Source: Acidimicrobiia bacterium (lineage in GTDB: Bacteria > Actinomycetota > Acidimicrobiia > Spongiisociales > Spongiisociaceae). From it: a stretch of DNA of 46,027 nucleotides. Position 1 is the first letter of the stretch, and every line of letters begins with the position of its first letter. The notes under the pieces are model-generated. The model worked only from the letters and a program-made list of their open reading frames with translations. It did no database searches and had not been told where the DNA came from. Position numbers and translations under genes: made by a program. Below are positions 26,430-41,402 of this stretch, one piece after another. The DNA lies in assembly GCA_041576165.1 (NCBI GenBank), contig JBFGLM010000039.1:1-46027 (forward strand), in the 5' to 3' direction.

Positions 26430-27431
26430 TCAGCCCGCAACCGAGATCGTGACCTCGGCGCTGTAACGGTCCTCCCCGTTCCACACCCAGGTGGCCTCGA
26501 TGACGTGCGAGCCCGGGTCGAGCTGGTCGAGAACGATTCCTTCGAGGCGGACCATCGTCCCGAACAAGTTGGTGATCGGCAGCTTGACCAGGTCGCCGGC
26601 CGCAGTTCCGTCGACCGTAACAACCACAGTGGTGTCTTCGGCCCGGAATGCTGCCTCATCGCCGCTGTCGTACGGGAGGTTGTAGAACCAGCCTTCCAGT
26701 AGGTAATAGGCATCGCCCCGGCCGATGCTGGCCGTCGCGGTACAGGCCGGGGTGGACCCGGTGCAGGTGCCGCTCAACCCGACGAGGTGGATCTGAGGGG
26801 GCAACACCACGGGCTCCAGACCGAGTCCCCGCGCCAGGAAGCTGGCCATTTGGGCGCGGATGACCTCGGCCTCAGGACAGAACAGGGTGCCGTCTGCGTT
26901 GCAACCAAGCGTGATCCCGGCCGCCGCGATGGCGTTGATGTTGGGCGCGTGCGTGCCGCGCACATCGGTGAAGGGACCGGTCGTGAGGGGAGTCAGGTCC
27001 AGGCCTCGGGCCAGGAACGACGCCATTTGCTCGCGGGTGACAAAGTCATTCGGACAGAAGACACCGGGTCCACAACCGAGAGTGATACCGGCAGCCGCGA
27101 TTGCACCGATGTTGGAGGCGTGGACGTTGCTCGCAGTGACGTCGCTGAAGGAAGGAGCGCTCGGCACCAGGTCCAGGGCGCGGGCGAGGAAGCTGGCCAT
27201 CTGCGCCCGCGTCACCGGCAGATCCGGACAGTAGGCAGTGCCCTCGGGTACGCAGCCACCCGTGATGCCGGCCCGGGCGATCGCCTCGATGTTCGGCTCG
27301 TGTGTCGTTGCGTTCTCGTCGAAGAACGTGCCGCCCGGTCGGTCGACCTGCGCGATGCCCCGATCCGGCAGGAGGACCGCGCCGGCCCCAACTACAGCCA
27401 CCGCAGCCAGCACGACTGCAAACCGGCGCAT
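26430..27431 (-). CDS. Secreted protein with three Cys-containing SLH-like repeats and a C-terminal beta domain
   Basis: Signal peptide MRRFAVVLAAV...; three copies of I.A.A.AGIT.GC...(Y/F)CP...V(T/I)R.QMASFLAR. Confidence 0.85.
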   Translation of the reverse strand: MRRFAVVLAAVAVVGAGAVLLPDRGIAQVDRPGGTFFDENATTHEPNIEAIARAGITGGCVPEGTAYCPDLPVTRAQMASFLARALDLVPSAPSFSDVTASNVHASNIGAIAAAGITLGCGPGVFCPNDFVTREQMASFLARGLDLTPLTTGPFTDVRGTHAPNINAIAAAGITLGCNADGTLFCPEAEVIRAQMASFLARGLGLEPVVLPPQIHLVGLSGTCTGSTPACTATASIGRGDAYYLLEGWFYNLPYDSGDEAAFRAEDTTVVVTVDGTAAGDLVKLPITNLFGTMVRLEGIVLDQLDPGSHVIEATWVWNGEDRYSAEVTISVAG

Positions 27432-27898
27432 CACACGTCCTCGATGTCGATTGACGCCAGCAGCTCGTTGGCGCTGGCCACCAGGGCTTCCCGATCGGTG
27501 TCGGCGACCACGACATACAGGCACCACGCCCGCCCGGACGCCTGGAAGAATCGCTGGACCCCAACCAGGCCCGTCAATGGACGCTGCATTGAGTTCGGAT
27601 CGAAATCCTCTGCGGCAAGTGGAAGAGGCAGACCGACGGTCTCAAACAACGCCTGTCCTACGTCGCGGCGGTTGTACTCGAAGAGCACGATGAGGATGTC
27701 GCCGGCGCGCATTATCTCAACGCCGCCGCTCCCGAAATCGCCCCGCTCCGCGGGAAGCGCAAAGTTGGCAGCGTGCAGAACTGCGTTGGTTTGCTCGCCT
27801 GTGCCGTCGGCGGCCAGCGCCGACGTGTTGGCGAACCTTCGGTAGATCTCTGCATCCCATCCGTCGGGTAGGTCGATGGTGATCCCGCCCCCTTGCAT
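27431..27898 (-). CDS. Hypothetical protein in the mau-like operon
   Basis: MQGGGITIDLPDGW...LHAANFALP...GDFGSG; TGATG overlaps at both ends. Confidence 0.75.
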   Translation of the reverse strand: MQGGGITIDLPDGWDAEIYRRFANTSALAADGTGEQTNAVLHAANFALPAERGDFGSGGVEIMRAGDILIVLFEYNRRDVGQALFETVGLPLPLAAEDFDPNSMQRPLTGLVGVQRFFQASGRAWCLYVVVADTDREALVASANELLASIDIEDV

Positions 27899-28572
27899 CA
27901 CGGCCACGCGAGAACTCCGGCCGCTACGAGCATCACCACCAGCTGAGCCGCAACCGCGGATCGGTGGGCGAGGGCGGCCCGGTACTGCATGCGGCGGTGC
28001 AGCTCGCGCAATGCTTCCGGGGTGGTGACGGACGCCACGGACCATAGGACGAGCGCACGGCCCGCACCGAAGACGGCGCCCAGGGATCCACCCATGACCC
28101 AGCTTCCCGACAGCAATGCCAGGGCGAACGTGGCGTAGACCGAGGCGGATGTGACGATCGTCAGAATCCCGGCCCCGAGCTGAAAGCCGTAGCCGGCGCC
28201 ATACACCCATCCCCGGTAGGTCGTGAGCCAATCCTCATTCACCTGGCGTTTGGGGGTCGGCAGCCGGACGACACCAAGGTCGAACAGGACTCCGGCCGCC
28301 ACCACAACGGCGGCGACGGCCGCAGTCCCCGCCGAGCTCATTTCCGACAACAACATGGCGCCGAGCGCGCCGAACAAGCTCCCGGTCAGGACGCCGCCTG
28401 TGATCGAGCCGATGAGGTAGGCAACTGCCGTGACTCCGAAATTCATGTTGCGTGACCGCTCGCCGAGCGGGTGGATGCTGGCCAGCATCGACTCTCCTCA
28501 GGGAGACCAGCTCGATCGAATCGCCCCAGTCATTGCCAGGACGATGGCAGCGCCGAACAGCGCCCCGGGCAT
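27898..28572 (-). CDS. MauF/DsbD-like membrane protein, predicted selenoprotein (UGA at 28500-28498 = Sec25)
   Basis: ATG 28572 overlaps the upstream stop; reads MPGALFGAAIVLAMTGAIRSSWSP-UGA-GESMLASIHPLG in frame into the 27898..28488 ORF; hairpin follows. Confidence 0.75.
28474..28489 (-). promoter_or_regulatory. Candidate bacterial SECIS hairpin
   Basis: GAUGCU-GGCC-AGCAUC starting 8 nt after the UGA; second hairpin CCGCUC-GGC-GAGCGG at 28470-28456. Confidence 0.6.
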
Positions 28573-29315
28573 CAGGTGTCGTCTCTTTCTTCGACGGTGT
28601 TCGGGTCGGGATACAGACTGGGGTCGCCCGGGTGGATTCCGGCGGCCGCCAGCTCGTCGTCGGCTCGCTGCTCCCGTTCCCGTCCCGTGCTGCCGTGCCG
28701 GCGCGGGTTGGTGGTCAGGCCGGCGTCGGCCACCGCCTGTTTGAGGAGCGACGCAACCTGACGCCAGGACCCGGCGGCACCTTCGCCGAGGGTGGTGCCG
28801 CTGGGGCCGTCGACGAGGATGAAATACGGCGACACCGGCACCTCGTAATCCTCCCAAGCTTGAGTGGTGGCGACCGTCGGCACGTGGGATGGAGCGAGTT
28901 CGCGCAACAGCGATTCGCTCTCCTGATCCAGCCCTTTGGTGACGATCACCAGCCGGGTTTGGTCTCCGGGGAGCTCGAGGTCGCGATCGGCGAAGGCCTC
29001 CCAGAAACCGCGACAGGTCGTACAGCCCGTCGTGAGAAAGGCCAGCAGCGTGGTGTGATCTGTGTTGACCACACCGACCTTCATCGCAGTCCCGGTCGGG
29101 GTGCTTCCCATCACGTCCCGAGCAGGGGTGGCATTGGGACGCGGCGCGGCGACGCCATCGCGCGTCTTGAGTTCGATGCGGGACGTCTGGCGGTTCTCTC
29201 CGTAGCCCATGTCGTGCAGGGTGCGCAGAATCTCGGCGTGGCTGCGCAGCAGCCCGGCGACGAGCAGACCGAGAACCGCCACGGCAAATATCACCACTAC
29301 GAGCAGGGTGGTCAT
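28572..29315 (-). CDS. MauD/TlpA-like membrane-anchored thioredoxin-fold protein
   Basis: N-terminal TM, FLTTGCTTCRGFW CxxC, cis-Pro VPVSPYFILVD; ATGA coupling. Confidence 0.85.
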   Translation of the reverse strand: MTTLLVVVIFAVAVLGLLVAGLLRSHAEILRTLHDMGYGENRQTSRIELKTRDGVAAPRPNATPARDVMGSTPTGTAMKVGVVNTDHTTLLAFLTTGCTTCRGFWEAFADRDLELPGDQTRLVIVTKGLDQESESLLRELAPSHVPTVATTQAWEDYEVPVSPYFILVDGPSGTTLGEGAAGSWRQVASLLKQAVADAGLTTNPRRHGSTGREREQRADDELAAAGIHPGDPSLYPDPNTVEERDDT

Positions 29316-30637
29316 GGCTGTCCCCACACTACTGGCACGTCGCCCGCGCGCCCGAAATGGAAATTGATGTGCGAGTTGCCAGCACTGTTGGAGTTGCGCA
29401 GCAGCCATTGGTTTCCTCGCACAACGCCGATCGTGTCTACTCCGTCTCCGTTCCAGTCACCAACGACCGGAATGTCATCGGGCTCGCCGTACCACACCGC
29501 AATATCGACCGGACCGGCGGCATTGGCAGTCCGCAACTGGAACTGCGAACCCCGCCGGACCCCGATCGTCGAAGGGCCGGTGCCGTTCCAATCCCCCGCC
29601 ACCGGGACGTCCCCCGCCTGACCAAAAACAAACTCGGAATCAGGACCGCCGGGGATGAGATCATTCCTCAACTGCCACCGCCCGTCTTTGAACGCTCCGA
29701 GGCCGCTGATCCCGTCCCCATTCCAGTCGCCCACGACGGGGATGGCACCGGCGTCGCCGAACTCGAGGACGATGTCGGGTGGACCCGGCTCCAGACTGTT
29801 GCGCAACAGCCAGGTGAGCTGGCCACCGAACGGGCCGTACTTGGTGCCGCGCACGACGCCGGGTGTCTTCGTCCCGTCTCCGTTCCAATCGCCCATCACG
29901 AAAACGTCGTCCGGCTTGCCGTATTCGAAGTTCAGTGTGGCGCCCTCACCGAGCGACTCGCTGAGGTACCAGGTCGTATCCCGCACCATCCCTGCCAGGG
30001 TCGAGGAGTTCGGGCTGGTGTGGAGGCAGGGTCGGTTGTGGAACCGGGTCCCATTGTCGGTGGCGCTGGCGGTTGTGCAGGTCGGGTCGAACTGCCACGG
30101 CGGGACGCAGGTGACGACGCGGCACAAGATCGGTCCGACGCAGCGCACGTTCTGATTGCATTGCCCGTAGCGGAAGCTCGTGCAGCAGGCTTTCCGGTTA
30201 CTGCAGCTCCCGTTGGCGCACCCGCACCCGCAGTCGGCACAGGTCCTCGAGCACAATCCGTTGGAGCCACATCCACATCCGTTGCAGTCGGCATTGCAGT
30301 CGAGGTAGTACCGGGGCATAGAGACGCCCCCCACGTCGCAGAAGCCCGATCCGTCGGCTTTCCACCAGCCGGCGGCGACGGTCCCCGGAGGACAGGTGTT
30401 GCTCCCGGTCAGGGTGCAGCAGAACTCCGTGTAGCCGTCACAGCAGAGATCGGTGCAGTTGCAGGTTGAGCCGTTGCACGAGCAGATGGCCGCATATGCC
30501 GACCCGGGCCGCAGGATGTACCGGAGCGGCGCCACCGTGAGCGCGGCGCCCACCAGGGCGGCTCTGGTGAGAAACCCCCTTCGGCTCGTTGTGCTGTCGA
30601 GCACCGCAGTGCTGCGCTCCATGAGCCAACTGCTCAT
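29312..30637 (-). CDS. Tat-exported Cys-rich MauA-like domain fused to GDWNGDG (FG-GAP-like) repeats
   Basis: SRRGFL Tat motif, AYA cleavage site, 28 Cys in about 155 aa including GSNTCPPGT...W...YYLDC, then four (V/A/M)GDWNG(D/T)G repeats. Confidence 0.85.
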   Translation of the reverse strand: MSSWLMERSTAVLDSTTSRRGFLTRAALVGAALTVAPLRYILRPGSAYAAICSCNGSTCNCTDLCCDGYTEFCCTLTGSNTCPPGTVAAGWWKADGSGFCDVGGVSMPRYYLDCNADCNGCGCGSNGLCSRTCADCGCGCANGSCSNRKACCTSFRYGQCNQNVRCVGPILCRVVTCVPPWQFDPTCTTASATDNGTRFHNRPCLHTSPNSSTLAGMVRDTTWYLSESLGEGATLNFEYGKPDDVFVMGDWNGDGTKTPGVVRGTKYGPFGGQLTWLLRNSLEPGPPDIVLEFGDAGAIPVVGDWNGDGISGLGAFKDGRWQLRNDLIPGGPDSEFVFGQAGDVPVAGDWNGTGPSTIGVRRGSQFQLRTANAAGPVDIAVWYGEPDDIPVVGDWNGDGVDTIGVVRGNQWLLRNSNSAGNSHINFHFGRAGDVPVVWGQP

Positions 30638-31197
30638 TCAGCCACCCTGGTCGTCTGCATGCTCCCCAGTGACCCCTGCCGGCCTGCAACGATACTCGCG
30701 CTCCGGGCCAGAAGTGTCAGCGCCACGTAGAGCAGGTAGGCGGCCACCAGCGTGGCCGCTACAAACGGGAGCCCGGCCCAGGGCTGATCCGCCAGGATTC
30801 GGCTGACCGGTCCGATCTGGGCCACCGCCACCCACCCGCTGGTGATCGCCCCCACCAGCGTGATCCCGATGTGCGTTCGGGAGGGTGGAGTGTCGGCCTT
30901 TCCGAAGCACCCACACGACGCCACCGGAAGGTCACGAACCAGTGCCAACCCAGCGAAACCGGCGAAGGTGACGTAGGCGGCCGCCAGCAGCCCGGCGAAA
31001 AGTGGGCGCCCGGTCCAGATGGCGCCCGCGGCGATCAGCACCTCAACGCCTCCCAAGCCGCGTACCAGGGCGAAGGAGCGGGGCAGGCCGGCTGCGGCGA
31101 GAGCGCCCGAGGTCCCACGCGGATCATGGAGCTTGAGGGCTCCGGCCACGCCCAGCAGAAGCGCGAAGGCGTAGAAGGGCCCGGCGAGCGGCGTCAT
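30634..31197 (-). CDS. MauE/DoxX-family membrane protein
   Basis: GVAGALKL, G.VEVL, ASCGCFG motif, about 5 TMs. Confidence 0.88.
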   Translation of the reverse strand: MTPLAGPFYAFALLLGVAGALKLHDPRGTSGALAAAGLPRSFALVRGLGGVEVLIAAGAIWTGRPLFAGLLAAAYVTFAGFAGLALVRDLPVASCGCFGKADTPPSRTHIGITLVGAITSGWVAVAQIGPVSRILADQPWAGLPFVAATLVAAYLLYVALTLLARSASIVAGRQGSLGSMQTTRVAE

Positions 31198-40712: not shown

Positions 40713-41402
40713 GTGCGTAGACAGATTCGAGCGTTGCTGGATCACATCGTTCCCGGACCGATGTTCGGAGTCTGGTCGTGGCGATATCTCGACAAATGGC
40801 GGACGGTCAAATTGGTGGCGTCCCGCCGGGTGTGGCGGCTCTACACCAAATTCCATGACGCGTATCCGGTCGGTTCCCAACTGCCCAACATCGATCTGCC
40901 CCGCACCGACGGGAGCCGGGTGAACACTGAAGCCTTCAACGGCGAGAAGCACTTTGTGATCTGGACTGGGGCCATCACCTGACCACCCTTCCGGCGGCAG
41001 TTGCCGCCGATGGAACAGCTCAGGCAGAAGTACTCCGACCGGGACGTCGCGTTCGTGCCCGTCTACGTGCGCGAGCCTCACGCGGGAGAGCACGGCTTCA
41101 CGGAGTACCGCAAGCACGAGAGCTTCGAACACAAGCTCGCCTATGCGGAAGAACTGATCAAGATCAAAGACCTGGAGACCCCGGTCGCAGTCGACGGCAT
41201 GGACGAGGCGGTTCACGCCATCCTCGGCGACCTGCCCAACGTCGTCTACGTCGTCGACAAGGCCGGCACGATCGTTTACAAGGCCCCGTGGTTGGACGCA
41301 GCGAAGGTCGACCGGGTTCTGGCGCAATTGGTGTCGGCCGACGACCCGAGCCGGCCGGTCTGGCCGACAATCGAGACCAAGCACCTCAGCAGCGCGATCT
41401 GA
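40713..41402 (+). CDS. Deiodinase-like thioredoxin-fold selenoprotein (UGA at 40980-40982 = Sec90)
   Basis: ORFs 40713..40982 and 41001..41402 are in frame and read WTGAIT-UGA-PPFRRQLPPMEQL...VYVREPH, matching deiodinase GSxT-U-PxF and VYIxEAH motifs. Confidence 0.85.
40992..41009 (+). promoter_or_regulatory. Candidate bacterial SECIS hairpin
   Basis: CGGCGGC-AGUU-GCCGCCG starting 9 nt after the UGA. Confidence 0.7.

Follow-up and report, generated by a model that had tools for sequence, protein, structure and literature searches.

MauF and related membrane proteins

MauF is needed for the biogenesis of methylamine dehydrogenase and is not known to have an assigned biochemical role; literature searches on MauF gave no biochemical account of the protein, the passages found naming mauF only as a member of its gene cluster. 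In CcdA-type transporters, a conserved pair of Cys residues, one in transmembrane helix 1 (TM1) and one in TM4, forms a redox-active disulfide. Other membrane proteins predicted by comparative genomics, namely TsoB (rhodanese/DsbD fusion-like, NF045694), MerT-like, YeeE/YedE and SO_0444, have selenocysteine (Sec, U) in or beside a membrane domain of the transporter or electron-carrier type. Here, we describe a gene at 27898..28572 on the reverse strand of a 46,027-nucleotide stretch of DNA (the window: positions 1 to 46,027 of contig JBFGLM010000039.1, assembly GCA_041576165.1, from an Acidimicrobiia bacterium of the Spongiisociaceae), which is likewise predicted by comparison to encode a membrane selenoprotein, and which differs from TsoB and the others in its motif, WSP-U-G with one Sec, and in its gene context.

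Our best overall explanation, to which we give a probability of roughly 0.85, is that the gene product is a polytopic membrane selenoprotein of 224 residues, which belongs to the DsbD_2/CcdA superfamily as an actinobacterial MauF homologue, with Sec insertion signalled by stem-loops downstream of its in-frame UGA. The narrower claim, that this is a genuine selenoprotein and MauF homologue whose UGA at 28500-28498 is decoded as Sec, we consider very probably correct on the strength of sequence comparison. Below, we set out the gene and its relatives, the RNA downstream of the UGA, the Sec machinery and the neighbouring genes, before weighing the functions and the alternative explanations that the locus allows.

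The gene and its in-frame UGA

The start codon of the MauF-like gene, ATG 28572-28570, shares its A with the stop of the preceding thioredoxin-like gene, TGA 28574-28572 (TGATG). The frame runs through 24 codons (MPGALFGAAIVLAMTGAIRSSWSP) to a TGA at 28500-28498 and on through GESMLASIHPLG... to the stop TGA at 27900-27898, so that translation with TGA read as U gives 224 codons plus a stop. The UGA (28498..28500, reverse strand) would encode residue 25, within RSSWSP-U-GESML, the assignment to Sec being taken from the TGA/Cys column in relatives and in MauF. The read-through protein contains no Cys. Nine nucleotides past the UGA stands ATG 28488 (28486..28488), which lies inside the stem of a hairpin described below and which gene callers take as the start of a 196-aa open reading frame (ORF), 27898..28488.

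The first-pass annotation of this locus, made from the letters alone, had described the coupling of the gene to the MauD-like stop, the frame that passes from RSSWSP through TGA and GES into MLASIHPLG, the lack of Cys elsewhere in the protein and a perfect GAUGCU-GGCC-AGCAUC hairpin 8 nt past the UGA, and all four stand as described, the hairpin at 28489-28474. It had also expected that ordinary callers would shorten the gene to the 196-aa ORF, and this is what the databases contain: in a search of 5.8 billion proteins, which gave 963 matches (E <= 0.001) among 7,999 candidates scored, the best matches are of two kinds, the first comprising proteins of 194-207 aa that start MLASIHPLGER or MLSSI... 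and are miscalled UGA forms, and the second longer proteins (216-223 aa) that contain WSPCG, Solirubrobacteraceae being one source.

Relationship to MauF, DsbD_2 and CcdA

When C is put in place of U, the protein scores 26.4 bits against Pfam DsbD_2 (PF13386), above the cut-off of 24.9, over residues 9-197, a span that crosses the UGA; no NCBIfam model, including NF045694 and NF033936, matched it at E <= 0.1. A tblastn search against 72,556 plasmids returned eight records. Six of them, five from Paracoccus and one from Indioceanicola, give the name 'methylamine utilization protein MauF' to the gene that matches (31-34% identity), and the two plasmid records that were inspected carry full mau clusters in the order mauF-B-E-D-A.... 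By BLASTP, the protein shares 32% identity over 202 residues with MauF from plasmid p2 of Paracoccus methylovorus (E 2e-15) and 33% over 169 residues with MauF of Indioceanicola profundi (E 2e-16). In these alignments SSWSP-U-GES lies against STWSP-C-GYS, with the U opposite the Cys of STWSPCG in true MauF. The earlier label 'MauF/DsbD-like' is thus upheld by the Pfam, plasmid and BLASTP results, and the MauF motif STWSPCG named with it is indeed present, P. methylovorus MauF reading LSTWSPCGYS.

The likeness to MauF includes the motif S-x-W-S-P-(C/U)-G at the end of TM1 and a single conserved redox residue, the U/C column being the sole invariant redox residue in alignments of the MauF-like family. 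The differences are that Sec replaces Cys and that the N-terminus is shorter by some 55-65 residues. Likeness to CcdA is seen in the DsbD_2 match above cut-off, in the roughly six membrane helices of an AlphaFold model, and in termini that both appear to face outward (N-out/C-out) when the positive-inside rule is read by eye. The model is a confident one (mean predicted local distance difference test score, pLDDT, 86.8; predicted template-modelling score, pTM, 0.85) and shows a helix break at S-P-U. A search of the family profile against PDB sequences found nothing meaningful. Sec25 presumably sits at the position that in CcdA belongs to the active-site Cys of the TM1 S-P-C motif.

UGA and Cys forms among relatives

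The distribution of the UGA was followed in three sets of sequences: 61 related genomes of the same family and order, the source genome included; an even sample of 251 genomes across the phylum; and 80 public loci, which are the best 80 of at least 589 relatives found by a pattern scan of species-representative genomes. The public loci come from named public records only, and the counts for the other two sets include some unpublished genomes.

Among the related genomes, 30 of the 61 have a match, and an in-frame TGA is present in 26 of 33 matches; in the 29 extracted rows that reach the Sec column, TGA occupies it in 27 and Cys in the remaining two (WSPCGESLQ). The codon at the Sec column of the public loci is TGA in 69 of 80 and TGC or TGT in the other 11, and is never TAA or TAG. 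Matches at E <= 1e-10 were found in 41 genomes of the phylum sample, with one TGA in 34 of 42 matches; carriers of the TGA reach down to 26-36% identity, and the matches without it either have Cys or do not reach the column. Both comparative expectations raised when the gene was first noticed, Cys at the UGA column in homologues and a conserved UGA in relatives, are therefore realized, the former in MauF itself, in the 11 actinobacterial loci and in database proteins with WSPCG, and the latter in all three sets.

Most hosts of the public loci are Acidimicrobiia, the others being Nitriliruptoraceae, Euzebya, Gaiellales, Solirubrobacterales, Thermoleophilia, Mycobacteriales metagenome-assembled genomes (MAGs) and a Dormibacterota MAG. 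Two carriers, both with the TGA form, are in culture: Actinospongicola halichondriae Hal317 and Angustibacter sp. McL0619. The loci further include an 'Acidobacteria' MAG and a short 'Gammaproteobacteria' contig, which are not relied on. As predicted from these sequences, the Sec-MauF-like gene is widespread in actinobacteria.

A quick maximum-likelihood tree of 83 rows (one for the window, 80 for the loci and two for true MauF proteins as outgroup, none being dropped) places the 11 Cys forms in two clades, with support of 99 and 100, nested among the UGA forms. At least one switch between Sec and Cys is needed, and the branch that unites the two Cys clades has a support of 68. This topology suggests that Sec is ancestral in the actinobacterial clade and Cys secondary; since most deep forks are poorly resolved and the outgroup branch is long, the order of events is suggested and goes no further.

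Two of the 27 TGA rows from related genomes belong to a more distant DsbD_2-like paralogue, present in two of those genomes, with the motif GS[TP]-U-TFNSAW, other sequence downstream and none of the cassette neighbours described below. This paralogue may represent a second Sec-containing subfamily.

Selection on the RNA downstream of the UGA

Two stem-loops follow the UGA within the coding sequence. Hairpin 1 (GAUGCU-GGCC-AGCAUC; 28474..28489, reverse strand), which begins 8 nt after the UGA, is the candidate core of a selenocysteine insertion sequence (SECIS), and hairpin 2 (CCGCUC-GGC-GAGCGG; 28456..28470, reverse strand) is a second conserved stem-loop with 6 bp here and 7 bp in most relatives. 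In an alignment of 25 UGA forms from related genomes, hairpin 1 is paired in 100% of cells, with five of its six pairs invariant and one showing a change from GC to GU. For hairpin 2 (CCCGCUC-GGN-GAGCGGG), which lies 26 nt after the UGA, the paired cells amount to 97.7%, and two pairs show compensatory CG to UA double changes.

The public loci separate the two forms of the gene. All six pairs of hairpin 1 are retained in 66 of the 69 UGA forms (the other three keep 5, 5 and 4) against none of the 11 Cys forms, which have 1-5 pairs, and the changes that are seen in this stem are compatible with wobble pairing. Hairpin 2 is complete in 53 of the 69 UGA forms, the Nitriliruptoraceae/Euzebya group having lost it. 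The hairpin 1 loop is free to vary among the 80 loci, and a conserved loop G is found only in hairpin 2.

Codon choice follows the same boundaries. Within the stem of hairpin 1, Ser +3 is TCG in 67 of 69 UGA forms, Ser +7 is AGC in 69 of 69 and Ile +8 is ATC in 68 of 69; within that of hairpin 2, Pro +10 is CCG in 66 of 69 and Arg +14 is CGG in 54 of 57. Outside the stems, Ser -2, Pro -1 and Gly +1 are written with five, four and four different codons, respectively, across the 69 UGA forms, and Arg +16 and Arg +19 with many. The Cys forms lack this freezing of codons, and their peptide is often altered here to S-L-Q-A-Q-I. Synonymous codon choice that is fixed within the stems but not next to them, in the UGA forms only, is the clearest evidence of selection at the level of the RNA. 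Decoding is predicted to be signalled by a system of stem-loops starting 8 nt past the UGA, inside the coding sequence for S-M-L-x-S-I...P-L-G-E-R.

A side observation concerns the same stretch in metagenomes. Across 28454-28495, the word depth in contigs of four metagenome runs goes up from some 5-10 to 54-272, the rise being made of many contigs of 32-48 nt with diverging continuations. This pattern fits a UGA-hairpin stretch that members of the community have in common letter for letter, and the stretch is apparently identical in many co-occurring organisms.

Selenocysteine machinery and other selenoprotein genes

The source assembly (5.1 Mb in 161 contigs, 96.5% complete with 7.5% contamination) holds the machinery that the first-pass annotation had named as a point to check: selA and selB, each in two copies that form two selA-selB pairs, a selD whose frame contains a single TGA, and two tRNA-Sec genes with the anticodon UCA. 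A selA match above cut-off occurs in 57 of the 61 related genomes, so that Sec use is a trait of the lineage. The duplicate selA-selB pairs and tRNA-Sec genes are spread over contigs C24 and C100, C1 and C145, and this doubling may be a real duplication or may reflect the 7.5% contamination.

The identity of the codon itself, for which that annotation had pointed to raw reads, was examined in contigs of public sequencing runs. Thirteen public runs from six studies contain part of the stretch, with no RNA run among them. In three of these runs, which belong to one study and may include the source sample, contigs cover 28465-28700 with no differing letter, so that the codon is TGA there too and not TGC, TGT or TGG; the sole difference across 28300-28700 in the run contigs is A>G at 28347.

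The selD gene of the genome (contig C1, 171385-172317, reverse strand) itself encodes a selenoprotein, with the motif GAG-U-ACK. A 7-bp hairpin with the loop GUC lies 26 nt after its UGA, and an inverted repeat, AGCUCG...CGAGCU, can be seen by eye about 8 nt after it, a spacing that resembles that of the two hairpins of the MauF-like gene. The window also contains a second selenoprotein gene, deiodinase-like, at 40713-41399 on the forward strand, with its UGA at 40980-40982 in GAIT-U-PPF. It was among the four of 107 read-through candidates in the window that were scanned with Pfam, and it matches T4_deiodinase (E 1.4e-14) over residues 27-190, a span that includes the U (residue 90). Its UGA is followed after 9 nt by a 7-bp hairpin with the 4-nt loop AGUU, a geometry similar to that seen in the MauF-like gene. 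The deiodinase-like family is already among the listed prokaryotic selenoprotein families (PMC13188914).

A Mau-like gene cassette

The MauF-like gene is the fourth of five genes with overlapping stops and starts, all on the reverse strand, which encode in order a MauE-like protein, a Cys-rich protein with a twin-arginine translocation (TAT) signal, a MauD-like protein, the Sec-MauF-like protein and a 155-aa protein. The MauE-like membrane protein (30634..31197; Pfam PF07291, E 7.5e-13) has a CGCF motif in common with Paracoccus MauE. The Cys-rich protein (29312..30637; TAT signal by TIGR01409) has 441 aa, with a Cys-rich N-terminal domain and GDWNGDG repeats. The MauD-like protein (28572..29315), whose start overlaps the upstream stop (ATGA), is a membrane-anchored protein of the thioredoxin fold with the motif CTTC; it has the architecture of MauD, and BLASTP aligns it to Paracoccus MauD (E 2e-5) with the CxxC in register. 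The downstream gene (27431..27898) is conserved, has no Pfam match and starts within the stop of the MauF-like gene (TGATG); its identification as MauJ was rejected on comparison.

The association extends beyond the window. A thioredoxin gene adjoins the MauF-like gene in 26 of 30 loci of the related genomes, and among the 80 public loci, counting ORFs on the + strand only, the 155-aa downstream gene is present in 69, the Cys-rich protein and the thioredoxin in 68 each, and MauE in 54. The order found in the window recurs in 23 loci, and the Cys-rich gene is last in 11; a varying order of genes that continue to occur together argues for a functional link between them. In one database protein, P0105 (354 aa), the truncated MauF-like ORF continues into the downstream gene (...GGRSMSALSGSGITIDVPGGWDGRIY...); the entry, a fusion or else a read-through call, speaks for a link between the MauF-like and downstream proteins.

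The Cys-rich proteins of the cassette contain 18-28 Cys. An alignment of the Cys-rich domain from 49 sequences shows 13 invariant Cys together with an invariant GWW and FRYG..C, and neither Pfam, run on the 49 members, nor a profile search against the PDB found a relative of the domain. The C-terminal domains of the family vary by lineage, and some members consist of the Cys-rich domain alone. The unusually long TAT leader (..LVER....L.RxSRRGFL) is similar to the MauA leader (BLASTP E 8e-4; hhalign E 2.2e-5). Inspection by eye also suggested a similarity of the mature domain to MauA (C..CPPGT..W..Y.DC), which was rejected, as BLASTP, hhalign, the PDB profile and Pfam support the leader only.

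The cassette thus resembles the mau cluster in encoding MauE- and MauD-type proteins and a TAT-exported Cys-rich protein with a MauA-like long leader alongside the MauF-like protein. It differs in that mau clusters have MauA and MauB, whereas here the client is presumed to be a different, larger Cys-rich protein, and in the extra conserved gene. Searches of the 96.5%-complete genome for the light and heavy chains of methylamine dehydrogenase, MauA and MauB (PF02975, PF06433), found neither, while the light-chain model did find MauA on a Paracoccus plasmid, which served as the positive control. With methylamine dehydrogenase not found and the control positive, we take this to be a Mau-like maturation cassette with a different client and not a methylamine pathway; and since MauA and MauB were not found and the Cys-rich neighbour matches MauA in its leader only, we call the gene MauF-like and not mauF.

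A possible role in protein maturation

A redox-relay role is the function that we tentatively favour for the Sec-MauF-like protein, by analogy and at something short of even odds. Sec25 would stand in place of the first active-site Cys (TM1 S-P-C) of CcdA-type electron transporters and would serve as the single nucleophile of a thiol-disulfide (selenenylsulfide) relay, acting alone because the family has no second conserved Cys. Likely relay partners would be the MauD-like CxxC thioredoxin, the MauE-like CGC protein or both, and the relay may serve the folding or cross-linking of the co-encoded Cys-rich TAT-exported protein, a client-maturation step proposed by analogy with MauE, MauD and MauF and the disulfide-rich MauA subunit. 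A complex prediction for a Cys-form MauF-like protein with its MauD-like neighbour returned a score of 0.00, which is no answer and counts neither way.

A bolder and more doubtful proposal is that Sec-MauF is the catalytic centre of an unrecognized maturation system, in which a membrane-embedded selenolate builds the disulfide or cross-link network of Cys-rich TAT proteins. Such a system would consist of the MauE-like, MauD-like and Sec-MauF proteins with the fifth protein of the cassette and would be widespread in Actinomycetota; the lone membrane selenolate, with no Cys to resolve it, would conduct thiol-disulfide exchange either across the membrane or inside it. The network in the clients, which have the invariant GWW, could include a Trp-derived cofactor as in MauA.

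Counter-evidence and alternative explanations

Several observations count against the explanation given above. Against the relay, the structural relationship to CcdA is faint, the top Foldseek match to the model being weak (5vkv, a nuclear magnetic resonance structure of CcdA; E 0.21, TM-score 0.37) and VIA-align giving generic helical bundles and unrelated transporters (best Z 7.9). The cassette is an imperfect copy of mau, with the MauD-like protein scoring E 0.013 against the TIGR02661 MauD model, far under its cut-off, and no homology of the mature Cys-rich domain to MauA being detected. The TM4 Cys of CcdA has no counterpart anywhere in the MauF-like family, which bears on the mechanism: the intramolecular disulfide shuttle described for CcdA cannot operate. 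As for the RNA, a 71-nt fold at the UGA in the window alone is no better than shuffles (z = -0.29), and a perfect 6-bp hairpin lies 5-12 nt downstream of 26 of the 1130 TGA triplets in the window (2.3%), so that hairpin 1 in the window alone is not beyond chance and its significance rests on the comparison with relatives. SECIS elements of the E. coli type have a conserved G/U in the loop, which is not present in all members in either hairpin; either hairpin may be the candidate for SelB binding, and no Rfam match was found at 28350-28600. No selA match was found in one related carrier of the TGA form (G039, 98% complete), and the case for Sec in the MauF-like protein is built by comparing sequences.

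Four alternatives bear on this case, of which the one that survives best concerns function and accepts the Sec. The protein could be a genuine selenoprotein whose Sec binds a soft metal or chalcogen, or moves it across the membrane, and we regard this as the main functional rival, though an unlikely one. Such roles are known in other members of the LysE/DsbD superfamily and among the membrane selenoproteins MerT-like, YeeE/YedE and SO_0444, and a single Cys or Sec without a resolving partner suits ligand binding better than a disulfide shuttle of the CcdA type. Some sources name relatives of the protein as TauE/SafE exporters, and several transporter-type selenoproteins appear in a 2026 review (PMC13188914). 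The relay is nevertheless preferred, because the gene is consistently linked to CxxC thioredoxin-fold, CGC MauE-like and 18-28-Cys proteins and not to metal-handling genes, and because MauF, the closest relative with a name, is encoded in a cluster for protein maturation.

A second alternative, which we think improbable, is that the UGA is a true stop, with a 24-residue TM peptide followed by a 196-residue protein re-initiated at AUG 28488; such an arrangement might be conserved as a termination-reinitiation pair or serve as a fallback under selenium scarcity. The start of such a product is well placed, in that the +4 codon is a start codon in 69 of 69 UGA forms (ATG in 68, GTG in one), against Leu in seven of the 11 Cys forms, and every public gene call begins at the counterpart of AUG 28488. 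The AUG lies in the stem of hairpin 1, however, and the stem accounts for its conservation equally well, while the Shine-Dalgarno-like GGAGAG just upstream of it in the window does not generalize, GGAG being present in 30 of the 69 UGA forms (Gly GGA or GGG) and absent in 39 (GGC or GGT). Termination would also leave unexplained why the stop is always TGA (69 of 69), with Cys as its counterpart in relatives, and why the 24 upstream codons are in frame, conserved and homologous to TM1 of MauF and DsbD_2; the truncated product would be without TM1 and the sole redox residue.

Less probable again is a reading of the UGA as Trp, Cys or Gly through an alternative code or near-cognate suppression. 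An open frame with TGA as a residue leaves the inserted residue unspecified, but TGA terminates both the neighbouring genes and the MauF-like gene itself, a complete Sec machinery with tRNA-Sec(UCA) is present, the homologous column is Cys, the usual counterpart of Sec, and the downstream hairpin specific to the UGA forms is what SelB-dependent decoding requires. Finally, the UGA could be peculiar to this one genome, as the nonsense mutation of a pseudogene or as a fault of sequencing or assembly, for which the 161-contig assembly and its 7.5% estimated contamination might be invoked; this is hardly credible when 69 independent public assemblies and most related genomes have the same TGA, the contigs of three further runs have no other letter at the codon, and the downstream frame is intact and conserved.

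Annotation state and novelty

Decoding of the UGA as Sec in a MauF homologue would make this a family apparently missing from current resources. The best database matches are named hypothetical protein, MFS permease, TauE/SafE or CcdA, and none is called a selenoprotein. A 2026 review tabulates 119 prokaryotic selenoprotein families, among which entries for MauF, DsbD_2 or WSP-U-G are absent, the nearest names in its table being TsoB (a rhodanese/DsbD fusion, UxxxxU), SO_0444, MerT-like and YeeE, and it makes no mention of Actinomycetota or transmembrane proteins (PMC13188914). Full-text literature searches found no description of a Sec-MauF family. A selenoprotein group 'matching K07090, unknown function' is predicted by deep-Sep in 49 Actinomarina genomes (10.64898/2026.04.03.716425), and this group might be a related membrane family. 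We read the Sec-MauF-like proteins as a new selenoprotein family that is widely mis-annotated.

Significance

The family has apparently been missed by present catalogues and annotation models, and its gene is called as a truncated protein, without the first helix and the sole redox residue, in hundreds of public genomes and metagenomes. Few selenoproteins carry their Sec within a polytopic membrane protein of the DsbD/CcdA superfamily, and this would be one of them. The two conserved hairpins at fixed spacing provide a clean data set for actinobacterial SECIS elements, outside the coverage of Rfam, and the two cultured carriers make experiments possible. The exchange between Sec and Cys identifies the Cys in the SPCG motif of MauF as a catalytic redox residue, and with this exchange at the SPCG column the long-open function of MauF becomes testable. 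If the maturation-system proposal were true, it would give the first biochemical handle on MauF in the biogenesis of methylamine dehydrogenase.

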